Source: a virus
Lineage: Duplodnaviria > Heunggongvirae > Uroviricota > Caudoviricetes
Virus record (IMG/VR): IMGVR_UViG_2579778804_000005
Reading direction: 5' to 3' (one strand)
DNA: 7,355 nucleotides
The position numbers and the translations under genes are program-made. This document shows, one piece after another, positions 1-7,355 of this stretch; the first letter of the stretch is position 1, and each line of letters starts with the position of its first letter. The notes under the pieces are model-generated. The model saw only the letters and a program-made list of their open reading frames with translations, was not told where the DNA came from and searched no databases.

Positions 1-8
1 GGCGGGAA

Positions 9-1838
9 TTACCCGCCGTTGGATTGTCCTGATAAGCTGGTTAATGTTAATGATTTCAAGAAGCTATCCCGACTTGCTCTCGCTGTAAAATCCACATAAT
101 CGCTTAATCTGGATGTGTCAGAATTAATAGTAAGAGGAACCTCTGTTACCACTTCAAATGTAGGATTCAGATTAAACACAGGAGATAAATTATAAGCCGG
201 AGTTGTCATTGCAAGATTATTTAAAGCACCCTGTTTGAGATTGGTTATCGGTGCTTCGCTGACTGACATTTTTACATCTGACACAGAAGATTTATCATCG
301 AAAAGCAATCCCTTAATCGTATTAAATAGAGAATGACTATTATCAGGTGTAGTTGTTGCAGTGCCAGCGCCTTTATATTGATCAGGAACGAGATTAGAAA
401 GATTCTGTTTCATTCCTTCATTGCTTAATGGCGGTGCATCTCCCATATTTTTCTGAATAGCTTCCGTCTTATCATCATTACGATTAAACCAGTTTACAAT
501 CTTCATAATAGCTTCAAAGAGACTTCCTGTAGCTTCTCCCAGCTTCGTAAAATACGGAGTGAGATTAGAAAGGTTTTTCATAAACTCTTCCGTTACTTTT
601 GGATCGAGAGATTTCATAAAGCCGTCTACGAATGCTACTTGTCTTGCATCAGAAAGCTGTGAAAGCTGTCTGTTTAGTTCTCTGAATTTAACAATAGAGT
701 CTTGCTGTGTTTCTGTTAGCCATTTTCCAGAGGCTTTTTGCTGATTAATACTTTCTTGTACATCTTTAACGGAACGTTGCCAATATTTTGATGTAAGCAT
801 CAAATCATCGCCCAGGTCTTCTAAACGTTGTCCAATTTGGGAGTCTGAAAACCCTTTTTTCATCATTCCATTAACAGCCTTAGAAATTAATCCAGCCGGA
901 TTATCAGCAAATTTTTTAAGGTCGCTTTTGTTAATAACACCGATGTTTAGAAGTTCATTAATAGCGTTATCACCGCCTTTCCATTCAGATTTTCCTTTCT
1001 TGTCTTTCACCAATTCAGCTTCACTGTAAGATTTTGCGGCACGTTCCCTAACATCTTTCATCTGATCCAGGTATTTCCTAGCCCCTTGATCACCCTGGAG
1101 GCTATCGATCCCGTGTCTATAGGCCCATTCTGTAAGGTTGTACATCTGGTTAACGTCTACACCGCCAAGCCTTGCACGTTGAATTAATTCTCCTTGTGTC
1201 TCTGCGTTAGCGAAGCTATTAGCCATAAATTCAGCGGTTTTGCTTACAGCCATCACGCCAGCAGCAGCCGTAGCGCCTCCAAATAACAGAGCGCCCATAG
1301 TGGCGGAATTCCCTGATCCTCCTCCCTTAACGGGGGCTAATTGAGCTTTTCTGTTGCCATTAATCTTACGTTGTTGTTGTTGTAGGCGTTTCATCTGGCT
1401 ATTCATACGTGCAAGCGAGATAGCCCCTTGCTCATATTGTTTTGCTATCTCTCTAGCCTGTGCAATAGCTTTGTATTGTTCCGCTACAGAGAGGCGGTGC
1501 ATTGCACTGATAGAGCTTGACACATCAAGGAGTTTTAATTCTGCTTTCTCTTTACGTGCTGCTATTTGTTGCTGTTGCCTTGCCTGTGCTCTTGCTGCGG
1601 CAGCTTGTGCTCTTTGATTCTGTTTTTCTGTTTTGGCTTTCTGTTGAGCAATCTTATCTACTTCACTTTGTGCTTTCTTATAGCCTTTAGTGACATTATC
1701 AAATCTTAATTTAGCTGGCTTGATATTTTCTGCGAATTCCTTTAAGCCTGTAATAGAGTCTTTCGCTTTTTTCAAGCTGTCTTTATCTACACTAAATGTT
1801 ACTGTGTTCTTAATTTTAGAAGTGTTAATTTCTAACAT
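9..1838 (-). CDS. Large virion-associated protein (609 aa) with a Q/A/R/K-rich coiled-coil-like segment and a Gly/Ala-rich hydrophobic segment; possibly tape-measure-like or an internal/ejection protein
   Basis: Complete ORF: ATG at 1838-1836, TAA at 11-9, AGGGGA ribosome-binding site upstream. The protein has a low-complexity stretch (QNQRAQAAAARAQARQQQQIAARKEKAELK) followed by GGGSGNSATMGALLFGGATAAAGVMAV. It is the longest gene and lies downstream of the capsid gene. Being a real gene is well supported; the function is inferred from composition and position only. Confidence 0.5.
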   Translation of the reverse strand: MLEINTSKIKNTVTFSVDKDSLKKAKDSITGLKEFAENIKPAKLRFDNVTKGYKKAQSEVDKIAQQKAKTEKQNQRAQAAAARAQARQQQQIAARKEKAELKLLDVSSSISAMHRLSVAEQYKAIAQAREIAKQYEQGAISLARMNSQMKRLQQQQRKINGNRKAQLAPVKGGGSGNSATMGALLFGGATAAAGVMAVSKTAEFMANSFANAETQGELIQRARLGGVDVNQMYNLTEWAYRHGIDSLQGDQGARKYLDQMKDVRERAAKSYSEAELVKDKKGKSEWKGGDNAINELLNIGVINKSDLKKFADNPAGLISKAVNGMMKKGFSDSQIGQRLEDLGDDLMLTSKYWQRSVKDVQESINQQKASGKWLTETQQDSIVKFRELNRQLSQLSDARQVAFVDGFMKSLDPKVTEEFMKNLSNLTPYFTKLGEATGSLFEAIMKIVNWFNRNDDKTEAIQKNMGDAPPLSNEGMKQNLSNLVPDQYKGAGTATTTPDNSHSLFNTIKGLLFDDKSSVSDVKMSVSEAPITNLKQGALNNLAMTTPAYNLSPVFNLNPTFEVVTEVPLTINSDTSRLSDYVDFTARASRDSFLKSLTLTSLSGQSNGG

Positions 1839-1852
1839 TTAAAATCCCCTTA

Positions 1853-2056
1853 TTAATCATTTTTACCACCTTCTTTACTTAAGAAATGGTGTAGAGCCTG
1901 ATCAATACTCTCGTTTAGTCTGAACATACGGGCTTTTACTCCTTCATATGGAACATCTAGGAGAGAACATAGATATTTCAGATTTAACAATCCTCTAGAA
2001 TCATTAGCATCTAAATGTACGTGTACACCATTTTTTGATTTCAAAATCACTTCCAT
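1853..2056 (-). CDS. Hypothetical small protein (67 aa)
   Basis: ATG at 2056-2054 preceded by a GAGGTGA ribosome-binding site; TAA at 1855-1853, 14 nt before the next gene's ATG. Same strand and tight spacing as its neighbours. No recognisable motif. Confidence 0.55.
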   Translation of the reverse strand: MEVILKSKNGVHVHLDANDSRGLLNLKYLCSLLDVPYEGVKARMFRLNESIDQALHHFLSKEGGKND

Positions 2057-2079
2057 ATTTTAATCACCTCTCAAAATTT

Positions 2080-2123
2080 AAAAATAAATAAAAAAAAGGC
2101 GAAGCGTGAATACACGCCACGCC
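2080..2123 (-). terminator. Rho-independent terminator immediately after the capsid gene
   Basis: Hairpin at 2098-2123 (ggcgaagcgtgaatacacgccacgcc): inner 5-bp stem gcgtg/cacgc with a 4-nt loop, outer ggcg/cgcc stem across a 2-nt internal loop. On the minus strand it is followed by a long U-run (plus-strand A-run 2080-2097). It starts about 20 nt past the capsid stop codon (2145-2143). Confidence 0.6.
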
Positions 2124-2142
2124 TCTAATACACGTTAAAATA

Positions 2143-3171
2143 TTATTTCACAGTGATTTGAACGGAGAAGCCAACGCCGTGGTTTACAACCATCTGGCTA
2201 TTCTCTGTAACAACGTTAACAGCATCACCACGAGAAGATTCATAGCTATAGCTGTACACCTCAGCAGGAGCGGTATTAATCAGTTCAAAGGTGCTGGAAG
2301 CAGCCCCGTAGATGTTCTGATATACATTAGAGCCTTTAGCAAACTTCGGAACCGCTACAGCGTCTGCGGTCATATGTGCAAGGTGTAGCGGATCTACCAG
2401 TTTAATAACATCAATGTTAGTTCCTGGAATAGTGAACGCTGTCACCCCTGGCAGCAGGTCACGACGCTGATACACAACGTTCCCTTCTTCCAGTGGGCTT
2501 ACATACTGGAATGCGTTTGCCATACCCGCAGAGAATCGAATTGCAGAGAAGGCTTCCGGCTTACAGAAAACAACAATACGCTCTACAGCAGCCGCCTGGC
2601 TTTGTGCTTTCTCGATAATGTCAGTAGCAATCTGATCAAATTCTTTAAAAATCTTCGTGGTGTCAGTGCTGGAAGCGTTCACAGTGGCTTTCATAGCTGA
2701 TACGTTAAACAGCTTGCCCCACTCGATAAGAACATCGTCAGTTTTCGGGGTATGTGTCTTGCCAGAGAACAAAGAAGCCGCCAACACGCTCTCTTTTGTA
2801 CGCTGATACGCTACGTGATGTTTAGCAACATAGTCAGCATAAATATCAGTGAGTGTTTCCTGAAAATCAGTGCCAGGCTTACGCTTGCCTTGCACGTCCT
2901 GCGGTTTGATCAGGTCTTCCCTTAAAAAGTACGGGATTTCGACCAGCCATTCTTTACCTTGTTCTCGCTTAGTAACATTGTGTTCAGAAGAGAAACGAGA
3001 GGTTTCTTTGTTGAACAGAGATTCGTTAGTTTCCACCAGTTGGCTAACAGCTACTTTATGAGAACTAACGCCCACCGGATCAGTGAAGTCGAGAGTAGAA
3101 AGCAGATAGTTTCTAGTGCTATGCGCAGAGAACAAAGGAGCTAAATCAACGTAATCATTACCTAGAATCAT
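2143..3171 (-). CDS. Major capsid protein (342 aa), HK97 fold, resembling the T7 gp10 family
   Basis: Complete ORF: ATG at 3171-3169, TAA at 2145-2143, followed by an intrinsic terminator. By recall, ERIVVFCKPEAFSAI...MANAFQY...PLEEG resembles T7 gp10A DRVFYCDPDSYSAIL...MPNAANY...DPEKG, and PKFAKGSNV resembles FPANKGEGNV. Length matches gp10A (~345 aa). This is a recalled comparison, not a computed alignment. Confidence 0.62.
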   Translation of the reverse strand: MILGNDYVDLAPLFSAHSTRNYLLSTLDFTDPVGVSSHKVAVSQLVETNESLFNKETSRFSSEHNVTKREQGKEWLVEIPYFLREDLIKPQDVQGKRKPGTDFQETLTDIYADYVAKHHVAYQRTKESVLAASLFSGKTHTPKTDDVLIEWGKLFNVSAMKATVNASSTDTTKIFKEFDQIATDIIEKAQSQAAAVERIVVFCKPEAFSAIRFSAGMANAFQYVSPLEEGNVVYQRRDLLPGVTAFTIPGTNIDVIKLVDPLHLAHMTADAVAVPKFAKGSNVYQNIYGAASSTFELINTAPAEVYSYSYESSRGDAVNVVTENSQMVVNHGVGFSVQITVK

Positions 3172-3189
3172 TTATTATTATTCCTTTTA

Positions 3190-3552
3190 TTAAGAAGTGA
3201 AAACAGAATGGAACCCTTCAAGCTGGAAGCCTTTTTTAATTAATGCTGTTTTTGCTGCTTCACTTACAGCATTCAGGGCATCAGCTTTAATGCACACAAG
3301 GCCAGCATTGCTACGTAGCACATCTACAGGCTTGTTTTCTCCTGCCGTTACAAATTCACTCATAACAACATAGATATCATCTCCTGATTCATATTTAGCG
3401 CCCGTGCTTGTGATCAAGTCGCCACACTCAACATCAGCAGGAAGAGAAGCAAAAACCTTGCTTTCTACAGAGGCAAACGGATCAGTACAATAACTTACAA
3501 TATCTGTGAAAGTCTTTCTAACTGGAAACAGAGTGTCTAAATCAATAATCAT
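3190..3552 (-). CDS. Hypothetical capsid-module protein (120 aa); possibly a scaffold, decoration or assembly factor
   Basis: ATG at 3552-3550 with an AAGGAGA ribosome-binding site 7 nt upstream. The start overlaps the upstream gene's stop as ATGA (3552-3549), indicating translational coupling. TAA at 3192-3190, 18 nt before the capsid ATG. Function is guessed from position only. Confidence 0.55.
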   Translation of the reverse strand: MIIDLDTLFPVRKTFTDIVSYCTDPFASVESKVFASLPADVECGDLITSTGAKYESGDDIYVVMSEFVTAGENKPVDVLRSNAGLVCIKADALNAVSEAAKTALIKKGFQLEGFHSVFTS

Positions 3553-3761
3553 TTAGTAATCTCCTTAGCTTTTAATTTGATTAGTTCATTAAGGGAAGGT
3601 GTAGACGGAGAAGAAGGAGAAAAATATTTTTCAACACATCTTTCCACTTCCTCTACAGAACACCCAGCGTATTTAGCTACCATTTCGGTAATTTGTGGAT
3701 TAATTTTCAGCATTTCATCTCGATACTTGATGATTTGCTCTTTATCATTTAAGAACAACAT
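3549..3761 (-). CDS. Small protein (70 aa) with a helix-turn-helix-like segment; possibly DNA-binding
   Basis: ATG at 3761-3759; the TGA stop overlaps the next gene's ATG. The segment QITEMVAKYAGCSVEEVERCVEKY has HTH-like periodicity. It is the first gene after a 344-bp intergenic region containing an operator-like inverted repeat. The exact start codon is uncertain. Confidence 0.5.
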   Translation of the reverse strand: MLFLNDKEQIIKYRDEMLKINPQITEMVAKYAGCSVEEVERCVEKYFSPSSPSTPSLNELIKLKAKEITK

Positions 3762-3828
3762 TTATATAAACCTTGTTACCTTGTTTAAAGTAAGAAATAC
3801 AACTTTTAAGTTGCATAACGGGCAAAAT

Positions 3829-3855
3829 AAAAGGCAGCATTTAGAGCCGCCTTTT
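3829..3855 (-). terminator. Weak hairpin, possible terminator between the upstream operon and the structural operon
   Basis: aaaaggc (3829-3835) pairs with gcctttt (3849-3855) around a 13-nt loop. Flanked by A-rich and T-rich runs, so it could act in either direction. Only three G/C pairs in the stem. Confidence 0.25.
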
Positions 3856-3883
3856 ATTAACTTGTACCTATGTAATTACCCTA

Positions 3884-3915
3884 TGTTATGCATACTCCAA
3901 GATGTATGCATAACA
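3884..3915. promoter_or_regulatory. Perfect 12-bp inverted repeat (operator-like) upstream of the structural genes
   Basis: tgttatgcatac (3884-3895) and gtatgcataaca (3904-3915) are exact reverse complements separated by an 8-bp spacer (tccaagat). A third copy of the TGCATAAC core lies at 3812-3819. All sit in the intergenic region upstream, in transcription sense, of the ATG at 3761. Confidence 0.45.
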
Positions 3916-4105
3916 AAGGAAAAAAGAGGTAATAATGACACTTAAGGAGGAGGAGAAGCGGGGAGCGGAGATTTTACTCCCCTTTAATGACAGGAAGAAT
4001 TTTTAATATCGAACCAACAAAGGAAAAATAATCACCCCTATATAATTATATTAACATACAATATATGAAATGTCAAGATATTTTACAACTTTTTTGTTGC
4101 TTTTT

Positions 4106-4441
4106 TTATTCTTCTGTGATAGCGCCTAAGCGTTGCGCTAGTTCAACAAGTCCGTCTCCTACATAGCGAATATCAGATTCAATATCTTCTATCCAGTTTG
4201 ATAACTCCCATATCTGATCCGCTGTCAGGTATGCGTTCTCACGCTTACAGAGCATCTCTACACGCTTAGAGAGGTGTTCAAAGGCACACACAGCTAAATC
4301 CCAGTGTTTAAACGCCTCATTTAGTGCCGCTGGCGTGTTTTCTTTGTATGCTTCAAGTTCAGCGCGGTTTAAAGGCAGGAGGTAATCATCCTCATAATAA
4401 TTAATTAGTGAGTAAATTGTATCATACGTGTTTTTGTTCAT
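4106..4441 (-). CDS. Hypothetical protein (111 aa after start revision)
   Basis: The ORF track starts this gene at 4468, but that ATG and the next one (4456) have no ribosome-binding site and overlap the upstream gene. The ATG at 4441-4439 has a GGAGA site 8 nt upstream and sits 1 nt after the upstream TAA (4445-4443). TAA at 4108-4106. Confidence 0.55.
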   Translation of the reverse strand: MNKNTYDTIYSLINYYEDDYLLPLNRAELEAYKENTPAALNEAFKHWDLAVCAFEHLSKRVEMLCKRENAYLTADQIWELSNWIEDIESDIRYVGDGLVELAQRLGAITEE

Positions 4442-4442
4442 A

Positions 4443-4850
4443 TTAAAAGTCTCCATAGTGATCTGCATTATCTAAATGGAATTCAGGAACTAAATTATTT
4501 AGGCCATTGGTGGCGAGATAACCAACGTAGTGATTATAATCTTCAAATCCTAAAATCTGGTATTTGCGTAAATCAGAGCTATCAACAATATACTCTTTTC
4601 TTTTTCTAGGTTTCCAGAATACGCCAGGTGTTGAAGATAAGATTTCTTGCAAGGCGTTAAATTCATCTCCACAAGGCACAGAGGGAGAATGTTCTATGAT
4701 CTCTGTTTTCCATTCGCCAGGGGCGCTATTTTGCTTGGTGAGCGTAACTAGCTCTTTAAAGTCTTTGCGTCTTAGAATAGATTTAGGTTTACTTAGAAGA
4801 GAAGCTGAATCACCGATCTTCTTAACAACGTTGTTTTTTCTTTTTGCCAT
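4443..4850 (-). CDS. Hypothetical protein (135 aa) with a basic N-terminus (MAKRKNNVVKK)
   Basis: ATG at 4850-4848 with an AAGGAAA-type ribosome-binding site; TAA at 4445-4443. Co-directional with and tightly joined to the downstream gene. No confident family assignment. Confidence 0.55.
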   Translation of the reverse strand: MAKRKNNVVKKIGDSASLLSKPKSILRRKDFKELVTLTKQNSAPGEWKTEIIEHSPSVPCGDEFNALQEILSSTPGVFWKPRKRKEYIVDSSDLRKYQILGFEDYNHYVGYLATNGLNNLVPEFHLDNADHYGDF

Positions 4851-4982
4851 TATTTACTTTTCCTTTTCTTTTAAAGGAAAACACCCCGAAGTATGTTTCT
4901 AACGTGAGAAAGAACAATAACCAATACATAGCTACTATCATAATAATGTTTTCCTTTTATATTTTAATTACATAGAGAGATT

Positions 4983-5258
4983 TTAGAGAGTGGAATAGAT
5001 GAATTCTACTTTATCCAGTCTTTTGAGATTGAATGTAGAGAAAGATAATTCTTTAATCTCTATAACACCGAAATTTGATAGCTGTCTAAGCCAGAATTTT
5101 AAACCATCTTCAGAGCAAGCTGCTCGATGTAACACATCGCTATATTTTAGCGGTGTTGGCTTTCCTTTATAGAGGTAAGCAAGTGTTTCGTAGATGCGTT
5201 TTCCTGTGTCATTACACTGAATTCTGTCTACTTGATTTTTTACTAAATATTGAATCAT
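4983..5258 (-). CDS. Hypothetical protein (91 aa)
   Basis: ATG at 5258-5256 with a strong AAGGAGG ribosome-binding site that overlaps the stop codon of the upstream replication-initiator-like gene, suggesting coupled expression. TAA at 4985-4983. Confidence 0.55.
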   Translation of the reverse strand: MIQYLVKNQVDRIQCNDTGKRIYETLAYLYKGKPTPLKYSDVLHRAACSEDGLKFWLRQLSNFGVIEIKELSFSTFNLKRLDKVEFIYSTL

Positions 5259-5269
5259 AACCCTCCTTA

Positions 5270-5923
5270 TTAAAATGGAATATCAAAGTCATCATACACA
5301 TTTGGGTAATGCTTAGAAAAATATGCCTCAATACCATTTGGTAGCTTTAACCTGTGCTTATAGGCTAACGATGTTGCAAATTCTATAAAGGATGCTCCTG
5401 CTGTTCTGGTGTTTTTCTGCTGGCAGATAAGAGAGGCAAAATTCTCTAACACATCCTCCTCATTATCATTAGCTACCTTTTCATTTGATGAAACAGGTGT
5501 TTCTTCCGTCTCCCACGGCAAAGGCGCATCCCAATCATCAAGAACATCAAAAGAAGACTCTTTATTATCTTCTGTAGGGGGAAGCTGTTCAGGAACAGCT
5601 TTAACGGTAGCTTCTTGTTGTGTTTTGGCTTCTTGTCTAGCTTCTTCTTGTGGAATATCTACCACTTGATAGACATTAGAACTTCCTGGTCGTGCATCTT
5701 TTATAATTAATCCCATTTCGAGCAATTTCTTAACCCTTTCCTCTGCTGCTCTTGGTGTTATGCCAAAAACATCGCCTATCTTAGCGTAAGAGGGAAATGC
5801 ACGATCAAACCCTTTCAGATAGCAGTAAAGGTTTTTAGCACTATCTGTAAATTTATGCCCGTTTACTTGGCTTATTTTTAGAATCCACATAGGAACTTTT
5901 ACAAATTGTTCTTCATTAATCAT
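5270..5923 (-). CDS. Replication-initiator / replisome-organiser-like protein (217 aa): N-terminal winged-HTH, acidic linker, C-terminal DDFDIPF tail
   Basis: ATG at 5923-5921 with an AAGGAGA ribosome-binding site. The N-terminus (VPMWILKIS...YAKIGDVFGITPRAAEERVKKLLEMGLI) is typical of HTH replication-initiator and phage replisome-organiser N-domains. The middle is acidic and Pro/Glu-rich. The last residues NVYDDFDIPF were checked codon by codon at 5302-5273, with TAA at 5272-5270. Confidence 0.6.
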   Translation of the reverse strand: MINEEQFVKVPMWILKISQVNGHKFTDSAKNLYCYLKGFDRAFPSYAKIGDVFGITPRAAEERVKKLLEMGLIIKDARPGSSNVYQVVDIPQEEARQEAKTQQEATVKAVPEQLPPTEDNKESSFDVLDDWDAPLPWETEETPVSSNEKVANDNEEDVLENFASLICQQKNTRTAGASFIEFATSLAYKHRLKLPNGIEAYFSKHYPNVYDDFDIPF

Positions 5924-5974
5924 TAAAAATCTCCTTATAAATCACGCTTAATGCGCTACTAAAGTGAATGAGGA

Positions 5975-6142
5975 TCACTTACCCTTTTTTTGTTTGATGT
6001 TCTCTGCTGCTTCAGTAATGATTTCTAACATCAAATCACTGACCATAATTTGCCTTTTCTTGGCTTCAGCAAATAAAACCTTGAAGATTTCAGGGTCAAC
6101 GTGTAGGTAAGTACGCGGAATTGGTTTCTTGGTTTCGCTCAT
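5975..6142 (-). CDS. Ribbon-helix-helix (CopG/Arc/MetJ-type) DNA-binding protein, 55 aa, absent from the ORF track
   Basis: Manual translation: ATG at 6142-6140 with an AAGGAGA ribosome-binding site, TGA at 5977-5975. Product MSETKKPIPRTYLHVDPEIFKVLFAEAKKRQIMVSDLMLEIITEAAENIKQKKGK shows the classic strand-helix-helix pattern (TYLHVDPEIF... then ...SDLMLEII). It lies 19 nt after the 62-aa gene and 51 nt before the replication gene. Confidence 0.6.
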   Translation of the reverse strand: MSETKKPIPRTYLHVDPEIFKVLFAEAKKRQIMVSDLMLEIITEAAENIKQKKGK

Positions 6143-6161
6143 AGTTTTCTCCTTCTATTCT

Positions 6162-6350
6162 TTACTCTGTTTCAGATTCTTTTTCATTTTTTCTTAGTTC
6201 ATCAATAATCTTGAGTGCTTCATTGAAGCAAGCTGCTCGCTCTGGATAACCTCGACTCCTTGCCATATTACGATTCATTACTACTTGATGGCGTGTAAGC
6301 TCACCTTTTTTAAATGCCTCCACGACGTGTTCTGATGTAAACCATTTCAT
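6162..6350 (-). CDS. Hypothetical small protein (62 aa), first gene of the regulatory/replication operon
   Basis: ATG at 6350-6348 with an AAGGAG ribosome-binding site 6 nt upstream; TAA at 6164-6162. It lies downstream of a predicted sigma70-type promoter. Basic/acidic composition, no confident motif. Confidence 0.5.
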   Translation of the reverse strand: MKWFTSEHVVEAFKKGELTRHQVVMNRNMARSRGYPERAACFNEALKIIDELRKNEKESETE

Positions 6351-6460
6351 AAAAAACTCCTTATTCAGTTAAAAGAAAAACACCTTGCAAGCCTGACGGC
6401 TTCAAAGTGCATTGATTTTGATTATTTAGAGAAGAATGTTTTTCTGTCCCTCTAATACCT

Positions 6461-6489
6461 ATTATTACATATAAAGAAACATTTGTCAA
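6461..6489 (-). promoter_or_regulatory. Sigma70/SigA-type promoter with an extended -10, reading toward the 62-aa, RHH and replication genes
   Basis: On the minus strand: TTGACA (-35, plus 6489-6484), a 17-nt spacer, then TGtAATAAT (extended -10, plus 6469-6461). The predicted transcript start is about 100 nt upstream of the ATG at 6350. Confidence 0.45.
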
Positions 6490-6581
6490 TACCTTTTCAC
6501 AAAAAATCTGATCTTTTTCATGCACTTACATTTTTTCTTAGCTATTCGTGCTCTTCTGTGTAGTGCTATTCTTCATTATTG

Positions 6582-6610
6582 TCTAAAACGCTCTAAAACG
6601 CGTTCTAACG
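6582..6610. repeat. Tandem direct repeats (iteron-like): two perfect TCTAAAACG copies at 10-bp period plus a degenerate third
   Basis: tctaaaacg at 6582-6590 and 6592-6600, then ttctaacg at 6603-6610. The junction forms the palindrome aacgcgtt (6597-6604). Located in non-coding DNA upstream of the promoter. Confidence 0.5.
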
Positions 6611-7015
6611 AGATTTTGATAAAAGCAATACATTCCCTTATCTAATGGCTGTTTAGCTCGCCAGAGGCTTATTTAAGGGGCTTATTTTGTATTTGTTAGG
6701 TATATGAAAAGGTAATGGCAGATATAAGATAGAGAGTCACTTTATAAAACGTTCTGTAAAGCCCTGTAGTGAGATTATATATGTAGGCAATGCGTTTCCA
6801 TTCCCTACCCTGCTTAATGCTGTTAGAGAAGCATTTAGACCCCTTATTTTTAATTAATTAAAGTATCCTCTGTACCTTGTGTTATGAAACACCTCTGAAT
6901 CCTTCATAAAACACATTATGACGCAAAGAACACTTTTCTAAGGTGATTCCCTTCCTGAATGCTGTTTCTTGCGTCAGAGAGCTACACAGAGCTTATAAAG
7001 CTATTATTAATAATA

Positions 7016-7076
7016 AAGTAGATAAAGTAAGATAAGTAAGTAAGATAACTAAGATAGATAAGATTAATAAGATCAG
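7016..7076. repeat. Low-complexity GATAAG/TAAGAT-rich tract
   Basis: About 60 bp built almost entirely from GATA(A/G) and TAAG units (gataaagtaagataagtaagtaagataactaagatagataagattaataagatc). No ORF on either strand. Confidence 0.5.
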
Positions 7077-7117
7077 AATTCTCTTTCGGTGTCGCCTCTG
7101 GCTTTTCCACCGAAAAC

Positions 7118-7274
7118 AATTACACGACTACAGAAGTAGGAAGTGGAATTGTATTGAGGCTTAGTGAAATTACACGAGGAAAGCAGAGTGTAATTGAGCT
7201 TTAGCCGCTCTCTCTTCGAGTAATTACACAACTACAGAGAATAACGAGAGTTATTAAATGTAGGAAGTGGAATT
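7118..7274. repeat. Cluster of AATTACAC sites (three direct, one inverted) and a perfect 15-bp direct repeat
   Basis: AATTACAC at 7118-7125, 7168-7175 and 7222-7229; inverted copy GTGTAATT at 7188-7195. GTAGGAAGTGGAATT occurs at 7136-7150 and 7260-7274. The two long units (7118-7150, 7222-7274) differ by a ~20-bp insertion that contains a small ataac/gttat inverted repeat. Confidence 0.5.
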
Positions 7275-7341
7275 AAGAGGTAGAGAGAGTTAACACATAA
7301 GCAATCAGTATGATTGGTTAGGTGATTACTCTTCTGCGCAC

Positions 7342-7355
7342 CTGTCTCTTATACA
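7342..7355. other. Likely Tn5 mosaic-end (Nextera-type) adapter remnant, not biological sequence
   Basis: The final 14 nt, ctgtctcttataca, match exactly the first 14 nt of the mosaic-end adapter read-through sequence CTGTCTCTTATACACATCT. The match sits at the very end of the window. It fits the synthetic mosaic end, not the natural IS50 outside end (CTGACTCTTATACACAAGT) or inside end (CTGTCTCTTGATCAGATCT). Confidence 0.75.

Follow-up and report, generated by a model that had tools for sequence, protein, structure and literature searches.

A gene-free, repeat-dense interval upstream of the rep operon in a satellite-like island of Escherichia coli: a proposed regulatory and accessory flank of the replication origin

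The window, by which we mean the whole stretch of 7,355 nt that was analysed, carries a leftward operon of three genes, encoding a 62-aa protein, a 55-aa ribbon-helix-helix (RHH) protein and a Rep-like initiator, and upstream of these genes a gene-free interval at 6351-7341 (Table 1). The genomic matches all end at 7341, and the true continuation, read from a chromosome identical to the source (reference locus L001, NZ_CP027366.1, of which 31 kb were examined), is ...agcgcaatag. In the source, the contig end cuts an ORF-poor tract short. In L001 the tract is bounded by the 62-aa gene and tRNA-Thr, measures 3.67 kb and has a single annotated CDS (52 aa) and at least eight repeat families, and the interval is the first, gene-proximal third of these ~3.7 kb.

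The tract belongs to a 12.3-kb island at tRNA-Thr, carried by 721 of 5,426 E. coli genomes (~13% of complete genomes); non-coding DNA makes up 30% of the 12 kb. Strains 89-3156, NC101 and BEN2908 are among the carriers. The island encodes an integrase (a tyrosine recombinase acting at the tRNA gene), capsid and tail proteins of its own (major capsid, tape-measure-like and Dit-like) and the Rep-like initiator, and has neither terminase nor portal. Profile scans of ten window proteins and four further island proteins gave Pfam, PHROG or NCBIfam matches for the integrase, the Dit-like protein, the tape-measure-like protein, Phage_cap_E and the O-like initiator only. No marker gene of P4-like elements (alpha primase-helicase, sid, psu, delta), PICI (alpA, pri-rep) or cfPICI (small terminase, portal, protease) was found among the scanned proteins with these three databases. 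The island family fits no described satellite class (P4-like, PICI, cfPICI, PLE), and our search of the literature found nothing on it or on satellites of phi92/rV5-like phages. The island is phage-satellite-like, behaving like a parasite of large lytic phages on which it presumably depends as helpers.

About 43 true loci of the family were kept by the BLAST filter; before filtering, the pattern scans across genome and metagenome collections had little specificity, and unrelated GC-rich genomes accounted for most of their matches. Searches of IMG/VR with the exact patterns of the iterons and the interval repeats recovered only island copies in prophage calls, apart from two chance matches (L023 and L029) that have nothing else in common with the island, and the plasmid matches to the tract are copies of the same island. 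Metagenome contigs of ~12.5 kb were considered as packaged satellite genomes and rejected: their ends lie just outside the att sites and are therefore assembly breaks rather than physical ends. The att direct repeat itself (ATGGTGCCGATAATAGGAGT, the tRNA 3' end) occurs at both island borders (L001 9738-9765 and 22016-22043) and is absent from the window, so the attachment site once suspected within the interval is to be placed at the island ends.

The Rep-like protein matches PHROG 270, 'replication initiation protein' (E = 8.6e-11), several O-like families and, below the curated cut-off, Pfam HTH_36 (E = 6e-4); its N- and C-terminal domains are modular among 22 relatives. These profiles identify the 217-aa protein as an O-like replication initiator with a winged helix. 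The 55-aa protein was modelled by AlphaFold with a pLDDT of 90, and Foldseek aligned the model with Arc, CopA_SO, MazE and CopG (probability 0.9-0.99, TM-score 0.6-0.75). Its gene is 99.6% identical in nucleotide sequence to a gene of phage muut. The 62-aa protein is predicted to form three helices (pLDDT 89); it has no significant fold or sequence relatives, its best indication being a sub-threshold NCBIfam match to 'RNA-binding regulator' (E = 0.02).

The first-pass annotation had described the interval as about 1 kb of DNA lacking any ORF of 60 aa or more, dense in independent repeat families and placed upstream of the operon of the Rep-like gene. All three points held up on closer analysis, and the interval was found to contain the promoter of that operon as well. 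The longest ORF overlapping 6351-7355 on either strand has 54 aa (6361-6525, minus strand, GTG start). Among 1000 dinucleotide-preserving shuffles of the same stretch the longest ORF averaged 54.0 aa, and 73% likewise contained no ORF of at least 60 aa. ORF lengths in 6351-7341 thus equal the random expectation with no excess of stop codons, and the stretch therefore looks non-coding; what is odd about it is the absence of genes in a compact element, not an ORF statistic. The small ORFs (54, 52, 45 and 41 aa) were rejected as genes, being unconserved as well as of random length: indels in block A and a 104-nt deletion that removes the 52-aa ORF show that they are not kept. Repeats exceed chance at every word length compared, with 44 repeated 8-mers against 15.6 +/- 4.7 in shuffles (maximum 32), 10 repeated 10-mers against 1.2 +/- 1.5 and four repeated 12-mers against 0.09. 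The families concerned are AATTACAC... (three copies), GTAGGAAGTGGAATT (two), TCTAAAACGC (two) and a 9/13-nt tandem array at 7013-7073. The GC content is 34.8%, compared with 38.2% for the whole window.

The 991 nt of the interval are present in 414 complete E. coli genomes at 92-100% identity, and no annotated feature lies under them in 40 RefSeq rows sampled across the ranking of these genomes. No Pfam or PHROG family, phage gene or plasmid gene matched the interval. Rfam 15, searched at gathering and permissive thresholds on three islands (up to E = 1, and up to E = 10 on L001 18351-19600), returned tRNA-Thr and tRNA-Gly only, both outside the tract, and ARAGORN found no tRNA or tmRNA.

Table 1. 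Features of the window in and beside the gene-free interval (window coordinates).
Feature	Position	Strand	Basis or remark
Rep-like initiator, 217 aa; N-terminal winged helix of variant I; C-terminus DFDIPF	5270-5923	-	
55-aa ribbon-helix-helix protein, candidate operator-binding regulator	5975-6142	-	
62-aa three-helix protein, first gene of the leftward operon	6162-6350	-	
Intrinsic terminator/attenuator in the 5' leader	6371-6410	-	fold and relatives
Sigma-70 promoter of the 62aa-RHH-rep operon: TTGACA, 17 nt, TG-extended AATAAT	6461-6489	-	
Quasi-palindrome AAAAAATCTGATCTTTTT with a GATC site, upstream of the -35 box; candidate site for a regulator or architectural protein	6501-6518	.	
Operator-like array: two copies of TCTAAAACGC and a degenerate third copy, GTTCTAACGA	6582-6611	+	tandem repeat search
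Candidate rightward promoter: TTGATA, 17 nt, TATCTA; abuts the operator-like array	6616-6644	+	inferred only
Two degenerate paralogues of the 6578-6742 unit (6739-6902 and 6899-7062)	6739-7062	+	alignment A4
AT-rich tandem repeat (AAGTAAGATAAGT and related units), variable in copy number	7013-7073	.	TRF, period 9/13
5' 270 nt of a ~430-nt hairpin-rich element	7071-7341	+	fold, alignment
Three related hairpin modules	7117-7151, 7168-7195, 7222-7274	+	fold, alignment
GCGC-ACA-GCGC hairpin, first half only, as the contig ends within it	7336-7341	+	
Nextera transposase adapter (ctgtctcttataca; CTGTCTCTTATACA)	7342-7355	.	assembly artefact, not genome

The gene-proximal part of the interval reads as the control region of the rep operon. 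Its sigma-70 promoter agrees with the consensus at 11 of 12 positions and is predicted to start transcription near 6454; the -35 box is invariant, and in the other lineage a -10 box survives as TAAAGT or TATTGT. Farther upstream, the A-run, GAT and TTTTCA columns of the quasi-palindrome are invariant in a 21-sequence alignment (A1). The leader contains a 13-bp hairpin (6380-6410) followed by UUUUUCUUUU (6371-6380), and directly downstream of this terminator come a ribosome-binding site, AAGGAG (6357-6362), and the ATG at 6350. A simple scan missed the structure because of a bulge. All 13 pairs are kept in 13 diverged relatives and the loop varies in sequence and length; two sequences lack one nucleotide in each arm, so that one base pair is removed, and two G-U pairs are possible on the minus strand only. 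As a conserved stem-loop with a U-run, lying between promoter and ORF, the element is by its sequence an intrinsic terminator. The constitutive-looking promoter (6489-6461, minus) would start a leader of ~100 nt that runs straight into this terminator (6410-6371). Since the terminator precedes the ribosome-binding site of the 62aa-RHH-rep operon, Rep synthesis should depend on read-through, which would take the form of attenuation or antitermination, presumably triggered by helper infection.

Upstream of this promoter lies the TCTAAAACGC array, which is almost invariant in both lineages of the island (a and b), themselves 72-80% identical around it; one relative (L020) has three copies. The exact 10-mer occurs only three times in the 31 kb of L001, twice in tandem in the interval and once in inverted orientation where the convergent int and Dit genes meet, within a 42-nt inverted homologue (L001 11217-11258). 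With two to three copies at 10-bp spacing, 440 nt from the RHH gene, the array places repeats of helical-turn spacing beside a gene of predicted RHH fold, an arrangement characteristic of RHH repressors and their operators. The array is thus probably the operator of the island's RHH protein, a CopG/Arc-type regulator, although the pairing of this protein with this site is our inference from motif, conservation and fold. A TCTAAAACGC site near the phage copies of the RHH gene was also sought, and none lies nearby. The candidate rightward promoter has an invariant -35 box and a weak -10 box kept as TATGTA or TATCTA; it does not appear in the output of the consensus scan. RHH protein bound at the array, ~100 bp upstream of the operon promoter, would gate rightward transcription toward the origin, and the second operator copy, at the far end of the late operon, would tie both island ends to one regulator.

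The unit containing the array is followed by its two degenerate paralogues, and the boxes common to the units are TAAAACG.., TTCCCTT.., AATGCTGTTT.., CAGAG.. and CTTATTTT. Compared with shuffles, the likeness is clear between units 1 and 2 (z = 4.3) and units 1 and 3 (z = 6.4) and not significant between units 2 and 3 (z = 0.9). Indels among 16 close relatives cluster mainly in the AT-rich tandem repeat that comes next. Taken together, the two decayed copies and the tandem repeat (6739-7073) probably serve as low-specificity architectural or spacer DNA.

From 7071 on, the interval enters a hairpin-rich element that runs 164 nt past the window to L001 19505, where it ends at the AT-rich flank of the origin described below. 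Its long-range closing helix has its 5' strand at 7082-7102, which pairs with L001 19470-19497. Folded as RNA, the plus strand of L001 19060-19505 reaches -158.6 kcal/mol against -112.5 +/- 6.2 (z = -7.5), and the minus strand has z = -5.6; with DNA parameters the values are -7.7 and -5.9 (plus and minus), and in the alignment-level fold of lineage a -7.6 and -5.7. The adjoining L001 18580-19060 has z = -1.7 only. In the three hairpin modules, what looks like a AATTACAC 'repeat' forms the 5' arm, paired with GTGGAATT or GTGTAATT as the 3' arm. Recombination between modules 1 and 3 has cost four relatives 104 nt (7126-7229). Lineage b, in which the whole of 6725-7500 is replaced by unrelated sequence, has at the matching position an element that again is closed by a long-range helix (z = -5.5 to -7.0); the single values for this unrelated sequence include -5.5 and -5.6. 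Two sequence anchors are common to all lineages, the GCGC-ACA-GCGC hairpin and TTCGKTGTGAGCGG, 68 nt further on.

Within lineage a, the hairpin element has the fewest substitutions of the whole tract, and 6800-7500 is more conserved than the flanking block A. The first-pass annotation had named a small ORF or a structured RNA behind the conservation of the region as grounds against its own reading; the outcome counts partly against that reading, the best-conserved part (7071-7341) belonging to a strongly structured element and not to an iteron array. The very high conservation within lineage a might also stem from a recent recombinational sweep instead of constraint. No compensatory double substitution was found at 132 pairs in 28 lineage-a sequences, where seven one-sided, wobble-preserving sites stand against seven pair-breaking ones, as neutral transitions would give; among six lineage-b sequences, 2 of 99 pairs are compensatory and wobble-preserving changes occur too.

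One reading of these data is that 7071 to ~7505 is a plus-strand gene for a structured non-coding RNA acting on helper or satellite transcripts, like SviR of PLE or the CI RNA of P4, and that its adjacency to the origin is incidental. The strength of the fold speaks for it, as does the preference for the plus strand in lineage a (~29 kcal/mol in the single sequence, ~27 kcal/mol in the alignment), the persistence of a fold whose sequence was replaced between lineages and, in lineage b, a variable arm of the closing helix that changes mostly by G-U-preserving transitions together with compensatory pairs in two small hairpins. There is also a precedent in PLE, where an abundant sRNA comes from an ORF-free intergenic region (bioRxiv 10.1101/2022.04.08.487710). 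However, the fold is equally significant with DNA parameters, no covariation is seen in lineage a, Rfam has no match even at E = 10, and the scan recognised neither a promoter directly upstream nor a terminator downstream. Lineage b has no strand preference, and therefore RNA, single-stranded DNA and inverted-repeat protein sites are indistinguishable. Moreover, in one relative (L007) every duplicated AT-rich/iteron cassette has its own copy of the terminal hairpin, a tie between hairpin and origin at the level of DNA. We regard an independent RNA gene as possible but rather doubtful.

The position of the origin follows from comparison of about 50 related islands, in which the Rep DNA-binding domain comes in five variants and each of these goes with an iteron family of its own. 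The pairings are I-F1 (at least four iteron copies in 14 of 15 loci), II-F2 (13 of 13), III-F3 (8 of 10), IV-F5 (6 of 6) and V-F6 (6 of 6). All five families sit at the place of L001 19560-19975, where the iterons cognate to the Rep of this island (TAACAGAATTCTGTGGGGG; partly palindromic, 18-23 bp) lie 220-630 nt beyond the window end, and the origin is therefore placed there. Iterons and flanking AT-rich stretches (blocks at 19500-19560 and 19765-19815) together occupy L001 19500-19975, 160-630 nt past the last genomic base. The same placement is favoured by T5orf172 nucleases of phages that carry copies of precisely these Rep domains, as nucleases of this kind target the iterons in the PLE-ICP1 system (PMC8263062). 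The origin proposed by the first-pass annotation is thus borne out for the 3.7-kb tract as a whole and not for 6351-7341. None of the repeat families in the interval co-varies with Rep: lineage alone decides whether they are missing or present, and they accompany every one of the five Rep variants.

For the interval itself to be the origin, Rep would have to bind AATTACAC, GTAGGAAGTGGAATT or TCTAAAACGC, with unwinding at 7013-7073. The interval does adjoin the rep operon, its direct repeats exceed chance and it has an AT-rich block; GATCAGAATTCTCTTTCGGTGTC (7071-7093) is even 74% like the F1 iteron. Yet its repeats are not initiator-matched as the downstream iterons are in ~50 loci, AATTACAC and GTGGAATT are two arms of a hairpin and not independent direct repeats, and TCTAAAACGC, invariant across all Rep variants, cannot be a specificity determinant. 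The tandem repeat at 7013-7073 varies in length and is separated from the nearest cognate iteron by ~490 nt. In lineage b, where unrelated sequence takes the place of all of 6725-7500, the same Rep variants nevertheless occur. We consider an origin within the interval quite improbable.

Another proposal is that the repeats are double-stranded sites for a packaging, partition or recombination protein, such as pac/cos, a centromere or the target of a small serine recombinase. The inverted AATTACAC...GTGTAATT pairs do resemble dimer sites, and a related motif, CTGTGTAAT, is arrayed in five copies of one orientation across the far side of the iterons; some relatives encode a 180-aa recombinase in the tract. 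The tract also holds a mimic of a phi92 boundary, a 40-46-nt match to phi92 318-363 that spans the end of the phage's 343-bp terminal repeat. However, this match (L001 20873-20918) lies 1.5 kb past the window end, the boundary mimic and the CTGTGTAAT array being 0.7-1.5 kb beyond the window, and it is the sole packaging-type signal that we found in the tract; a packaging site within the interval, as suggested earlier, is not supported. The source island has no recombinase gene in its tract, the att repeats are at the island ends, and a partition site would have no obvious use since the island is integrated in the chromosome. The segment is inverted in no aligned relative and has no hix- or gix-like sequence, leaving an invertible segment with a serine recombinase unsupported. 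The link that would make AATTACAC the same site as the CTGTGTAAT array is weak, with one exact shared 8-mer in block B. This proposal appears very improbable to us. We predict one end of packaged DNA after ...ATCGCGTTA at L001 20898. The boundary copy is the only phage match of the tract, apart from an AT-rich 22-nt match of 6834-6855 to the right-end non-coding region of phi92 (E = 0.003 in a 60-kb search).

A reading of the interval as decayed DNA without function (remnants of pseudogenes, or filler adjusting length for packaging) would agree with its random-like ORF statistics, the degenerate units 2 and 3, the variable tandem repeat and the tolerated 104-nt deletion, but it is very improbable given that block A motifs are invariant between lineages differing by 20-28% around them, that 6800-7500 is conserved beyond block A with a fold far from random, and that minimal islands without any capsid gene still carry blocks A and B and the origin.

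On balance we favour a working model in which 6351-7341 is the regulatory and accessory flank of the origin and not the origin itself. The interval is predicted, by analogy with the iteron-free thirds of the PLE non-coding region, to be dispensable for replication. The hairpin element would act by its fold rather than its sequence as an accessory of the origin, a role suggested by its structure potential, position and conservation; it might be the structured end of a rightward, origin-activating transcript, or its single-stranded hairpins might prime replication or load helicase once Rep melts the adjoining AT-rich DNA. A bolder proposal, which we hold to be unlikely, is that the element is the first of a new kind of large, structured nucleic acid, either RNA or single-stranded DNA that is extruded, and an obligatory partner of iteron origins in widespread satellites that have so far escaped description. 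If true, each lineage would have realised one architecture with a different sequence in satellites of phi92/phAPEC8-like lytic phages, the element, acting jointly with a Rep protein that mimics the SSB tail at its C-terminus, could for example recruit the replisome or prime it, and the satellite family would be engaged in a PLE/Odn-type arms race with its helpers. As a control region beside an origin, the interval is ordinary in kind; its context is not. It offers concrete handles within the window, namely the leader attenuator as an induction reporter, the candidate RHH operator and the structured element beside the origin.

Several parts of the model have counterparts in known systems. In the P4 immunity region, the P_LE transcript ends promoter-proximally under control of the CI RNA. 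P4 and the island, both ~12-kb E. coli satellites, have in common a strong constitutive promoter with a terminator within ~100 nt, before the replication genes, and short sequence repeats in the untranslated region. However, there is no homology between them, the island lacks alpha primase-helicase, sid, psu and delta, and we identified no RNA complementary to the leader. In lambdoid phages, transcription activates the origin, and lambda ori lies within the O gene. The island resembles them in its O-like winged-helix initiator, in part-palindromic iterons of 18-23 bp beside AT-rich DNA and in the proposed transcription toward the origin, whereas its origin is non-coding and lies 1.2 kb upstream of rep rather than inside the initiator gene; the Rep C-terminal domain is unrelated to O and ends in the SSB-like DFDIPF tip. 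As with CopG (pMV158), Arc (P22) and omega (pSM19035), the rep operon includes a gene for a small RHH protein, and short direct repeats at one helical turn (10 bp, two to three copies) lie beside a promoter; in the island, however, the putative operator is ~100 bp upstream of the rep-operon promoter without overlapping it, and its second copy lies between two convergent genes. Single-strand initiation and primosome sites flank plasmid origins, for example the G-site of R1, the n' sites of ColE1 and phiX174 and ssi of RSF1010. They share with the hairpin element strand-biased hairpin DNA within a few hundred nt of an iteron origin, but known signals of this kind measure 60-140 nt, compared with ~430 nt and a long-range closing helix here, and the likeness meant is one of architecture.

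The closest analogue is the non-coding region of PLE of Vibrio cholerae (Barth et al. 2020, NAR, PMC7145576; Barth, Nguyen and Seed 2021, eLife, PMC8263062), which covers 2.7 kb, contains four repeat families and is needed for replication in one third only (PMC7145576). PLE and the island are small integrated elements without terminase or portal, with 2.7 of 18 kb and 3.7 of 12.3 kb, respectively, in an ORF-free tract that carries several unrelated repeat families, one of them the iteron set of the initiator. It is the tract as a whole, not the interval, that combines multiple repeats with co-variation of initiator and iterons; in both systems the N-terminal domain of the initiator and the iterons are swapped as a module while the C-terminal domain is kept (PMC8263062). 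PLE and the island differ in that they have no sequence similarity, the initiator of PLE is of the RepA_N type rather than an HTH_36/lambda-O-like winged helix, and the island has a tyrosine recombinase at a tRNA gene as integrase and encodes its own major capsid, tape-measure-like and Dit-like proteins. Since Rep matches HTH_36 and O-like PHROGs only and nothing in NCBIfam, the island is an analogue of PLE, not a member. In both cases a large lytic myophage has a T5orf172 nuclease fused to a copy of the DNA-binding domain of the satellite initiator; in the PLE-ICP1 pair such nucleases target the satellite iterons (PMC8263062). The Odn-like T5orf172 nucleases of phi92-like phages, by comparison, carry two tandem satellite-derived Rep domains instead of one, and the helper dependence of the island is presumptive. 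Nucleases of the Odn-like kind include QNJ49226 of Mt1B1_P17 and gp154 of muut. If there is a counterpart here, its study could draw on a tractable host and on phages already isolated, such as phi92, muut, inny and Mt1B1_P17. The result also bears on phage therapy, since pathogenic E. coli is treated with phi92/phAPEC8-like phages. To our knowledge, the PLE-ICP1 conflict has so far been a single-system paradigm; module swapping, the mimic of the phi92 end and the two-domain phage nucleases suggest that the island and its phages are its counterpart in E. coli.

Window positions 1-7341 are 100% identical to the chromosome of E. coli 89-3156 (NZ_CP027366.1; L001, the locus containing the window, 12001-19341), and the last 14 bases (7342-7355) are the Nextera adapter CTGTCTCTTATACA, joined within the GCGCACAGCGC hairpin; this contig end arose in assembly and does not mark a physical end of the DNA. 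The window is a piece of a 12.3-kb island integrated at tRNA-Thr (thrW), which encodes a tyrosine integrase, Dit-like (tail) and tape-measure-like proteins, a major capsid protein of the lambda E type with a partner at the D position, several small proteins, a winged-helix, O-like initiator (Rep, 217 aa), a ribbon-helix-helix (RHH) protein of 55 aa and a three-helix protein of 62 aa. No terminase, portal, protease or lysis genes were found in the island, nor were marker genes of P4-like, PICI, cfPICI or PLE elements. Judging from its gene set, the island has the make-up of a phage satellite. Of 5,426 complete E. coli genomes, 721 carry related DNA, and no paper on the island family was found. 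The major capsid protein is just 23-26% identical to its closest relatives among phages, which come from Pseudomonas myophages rather than coliphages. With the tape-measure-like and Dit-like proteins it makes up a structural set (window 9-3552 and L001 11262-11975) that is unusual in an element of 12 kb. A second ORF-free gap (3762-4105) separates the head-gene cluster from the early genes; it measures 344 nt here versus about 900-990 nt in lineage b, one of two groups (a and b) of related islands. Within this gap, near 3880-3919, is an inverted repeat of 16 nt, CCTATGTTATGCATAC/GTATGCATAACAAAGG.

The first-pass annotation described 6351-7341 as ORF-free and repeat-dense, and both descriptions hold. 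No ORF of at least 60 aa overlaps 6351-7355, ORF lengths in the interval are those of dinucleotide shuffles, and repeated 8-, 10- and 12-mers are 3 to 40 times commoner than in shuffles. The 991-nt interval (34.8% GC) was found in 414 genomes at 92-100% identity, with no annotated gene under it in 40 sampled rows. The ORF-poor tract is cut by the contig end; in the chromosome it covers 3.67 kb, reaches the tRNA and bears one annotated CDS, of 52 aa. Relatives at tRNA-Thr, at tRNA-Gly and beside thiM all carry 2-3.7 kb of ORF-poor DNA at the same position, and BLAST against 8, then 24 relatives was used to divide the tract into blocks (see table). Beyond the iterons as seen from the window, both lineages have (C)TGTGTAAT or TGTGCAAT five times on one strand within ~800 nt, where chance would give about 2.5 copies in the entire 31-kb locus and 1.5 in the 14-kb one; this family-wide array is presumably bound by a conserved factor. 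Two thiM-adjacent islands, L011 and L012, are minimal, without capsid or tail genes, and retain the rep, RHH and 62-aa genes, blocks A and B and the origin; their integrase is a different one, and they also encode a small serine recombinase, an HTH protein and a nuclease (HNH or GmrSD). This gene content indicates that the replication and control module is common to different island backbones, some of them with defence genes.

Features of the island and its ORF-poor tract (plain positions, window; L numbers, compared loci)
Feature	Position	Strand	Description
Island direct repeat	L001 9738-9765 and 22016-22043		ATGGTGCCGATAATAGGAGT; borders of island
rep-operon promoter	6489-6461	minus	TTGACA, 17 nt, TG-AATAAT; 11/12 consensus positions
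Quasi-palindrome	6501-6518		centred on GATC
Operator-like array	6582-6611		TCTAAAACGC x2 + GTTCTAACGA; TCTAAAACGC x3 in one relative
Block A	6351-6724		all islands, 72-100% identity
Block B	6725 to about 7500		lineage a only; unrelated ~600-nt sequence in lineage b
Iteron zone	L001 19500-19990		hypervariable
Block D	L001 19971-20289		all islands; bears CTGTGTAAT array
Block E	L001 20447-21150		some islands
Block F	att-proximal		some islands
(C)TGTGTAAT/TGTGCAAT array	L001 20017-20797; L006 8186-8827		
Predicted sigma-70 promoter	L001 20491-20518	minus	TTGACT, 16 nt, TATAAT; 11/12 positions
Serine recombinase gene	L010 5470-6009; L011 5265-5816; L012 5488-6027		180 aa; in place of block E
Iteron F1, Rep variant I			TAACAGAATTCTGTGGGGGT; at least 4 copies in 14/15 loci
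Iteron F2, Rep variant II			TAGTTCACAGTGACCTACCCCC; 13/13 loci
Iteron F3, Rep variant III			GGAAATCATTTCCTAGGT; 8/10 loci
Iteron F5, Rep variant IV			ATGTAACGAATCGTTAC; 6/6 loci
Iteron F6, Rep variant V			TATCAGTTTTGATAGGGG; 6/6 loci

The suggestion that the interval is a replication origin holds in part for the whole tract and fails for 6351-7341 itself. An alignment of Rep from 22 islands resolves two modules, an N-terminal winged-helix domain with five unrelated variants and a C-terminal domain of two or three types. Across about 50 loci, the hypervariable zone holds a distinct iteron family for each N-terminal variant, the iterons being partly palindromic and lying between AT-rich stretches of ~60 nt. 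The Rep domain and the iterons swap jointly across 1.5 kb of conserved DNA, which argues for a functional pair. The same co-swapping has been demonstrated experimentally for RepA and its ori in PLE, a Vibrio cholerae phage satellite (PMC8263062), and only the iteron-bearing third of the PLE non-coding region is required for replication (PMC7145576). Since the iterons track the Rep variant and the repeat families inside the window are independent of it, the origin proper is best placed outside the window, starting about 160 nt past its last genomic base. The composite origin zone of this island (160-650 nt past the window end) holds six F1, three F2, three F3 and two F6 iterons, and in L007 the cassette of hairpin, AT-rich DNA and iterons is present twice in full. 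Transcripts from the leftward near-consensus promoter predicted in L001 would cross block D, the iterons and the hairpin element in the direction of the rep operon. Rep ends in ...YDDFDIPF (window 5270-5290), or in ...IYDSIPF in the other C-terminal type. The C-terminal tip of E. coli SSB, DDDIPF, docks PriA, primase, chi and other partners; the Rep tip resembles it and may be an SSB-tail mimic that recruits host replication proteins.

Within the interval, the promoter of the rep operon has an invariant -35, and a -10 is present in every lineage. In its predicted ~100-nt leader, a hairpin of 13 bp (6410-6380) precedes UUUUUCUUUU, after which come AAGGAG and the start codon (ATG) of the 62-aa gene. 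In 13 diverged sequences all pairs of this hairpin are kept and the loop varies in sequence and length, two sequences having lost one nucleotide from either arm; as two of the pairs are G-U, the hairpin is specific to the minus strand. We read the hairpin and UUUUUCUUUU as a putative attenuator gating the 62aa-RHH-rep operon. The TCTAAAACGC/GTTCTAACGA array adjoins an invariant TTGATA with a weak -10 17 nt downstream, and the exact 10-mer TCTAAAACGC occurs only three times in 31 kb. Because RHH operators are typically ten-bp tandem repeats and, among the small proteins of the island family, the RHH protein is the most conserved, we infer that the two are paired, the array being a candidate operator of this protein. 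The third TCTAAAACGC copy belongs to an inverted homologue, 42 nt long, of the operator region (L001 11217-11258), between the convergent int and Dit-like genes and beside a terminator hairpin.

Further on, the 6578-6742 unit recurs in degenerate form at 6739-6902 and 6899-7062 (unit 1 versus 2, z = 4.3; 1 versus 3, z = 6.4; 2 versus 3, not significant), and these copies terminate in an AT-rich tandem repeat of variable copy number. At 6834-6855, TTTAGACCCCTTATTTTTAATT matches the phage phi92 at 21 of 22 nt, in a non-coding region of 1.1 kb that is rich in repeats and immediately precedes the right terminal repeat; this AT-rich match may be due to chance. A hairpin-rich element begins at 7071. 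The fold of L001 19060-19505 reaches -158.6 kcal/mol against -112.5 +/- 6.2 in shuffles (z = -7.5; minus strand, z = -5.6; with DNA parameters, z = -7.7 and -5.9), whereas the 480 nt to its left are unremarkable (z = -1.7). A long-range helix of 7082-7102 with L001 19470-19497 closes the domain. AATTACAC and GTAGGAAGTGGAATT, taken as repeat families, are actually the two arms of three related hairpins, and recombination between hairpins 1 and 3 has removed 104 nt in four relatives. The element is the least variable part of the tract within lineage a, while lineage b has at the same place an unrelated sequence whose closing helix is 24 bp long and whose fold gives z = -5.5 to -7.0 on both strands; the plus-strand preference is confined to lineage a, and only two short anchors, GCGCACAGCGC and TTCGKTGTGAGCGG, are common to both lineages. 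Compensatory pairs number 0 of 132 in 28 sequences, which are near-identical, so that covariation is uninformative. No Rfam family, tRNA or tmRNA matched the element. We propose that it acts through its fold, as RNA or as single-stranded DNA.

Attachment and packaging sites had also been suggested for the interval. Neither suggestion finds support in the window: the direct repeats lie at the island borders, and the packaging candidate is at L001 20873-20918, a near-identical copy (40-46 nt) of a phi92 sequence. Here L001 20873-20912 and phi92 318-357 are identical at 39 of 40 positions, and the match contains the exact point at which the final 26 nt of the phi92 genome (...ATCGCGTTA) stop; because the genome terminus falls inside it, the match is a copy of the inner boundary of the 343-bp direct terminal repeat. 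This copy is plausibly a terminase cutting signal, making L001 20873-20918 a candidate packaging-signal mimic. The boundary sequence is also present in about 54 phi92-like genomes. In L001 the mimic lies in block E, where L010-L012 have the serine recombinase; the two may be alternative ways to resolve or process replicated DNA.

Taken together, the best description of 6351-7341 is a promoter, putative attenuator and candidate operator for the replication operon and, after them, a structured element that flanks the origin. This kind of region is already known, its closest analogue being PLE, and the likeness may extend to the presumed helper phages. Window 5570-6154 (Rep N-terminus and RHH gene) is 90-99.6% identical to Stephanstirmvirinae phages, in which the matching genes encode ~330-aa proteins that carry two HTH_36 domains in tandem and, at the C-terminus, a T5orf172/MUG113 (GIY-YIG-type) domain; the phages encoding these Rep-domain/nuclease fusions are phi92/phAPEC8-like lytic phages. 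The Mt1B1_P17 protein (QNJ49226.1; L244 863-1849) combines Rep variants I (83% over 119 aa) and III (85% over 100 aa), and in muut gp154 (L004 3010-4008) a first domain of variant V, near-identical over ~120 aa (88% over 139 aligned), precedes a variant III-like one. Odn, the origin-directed nuclease of phage ICP1, has the same architecture, and it binds and cuts PLE iterons (PMC8263062). From their domains, the ~330-aa phage proteins look like E. coli counterparts of Odn; if so, they would explain the swapping of Rep/iteron modules and composite origins such as that of this island.
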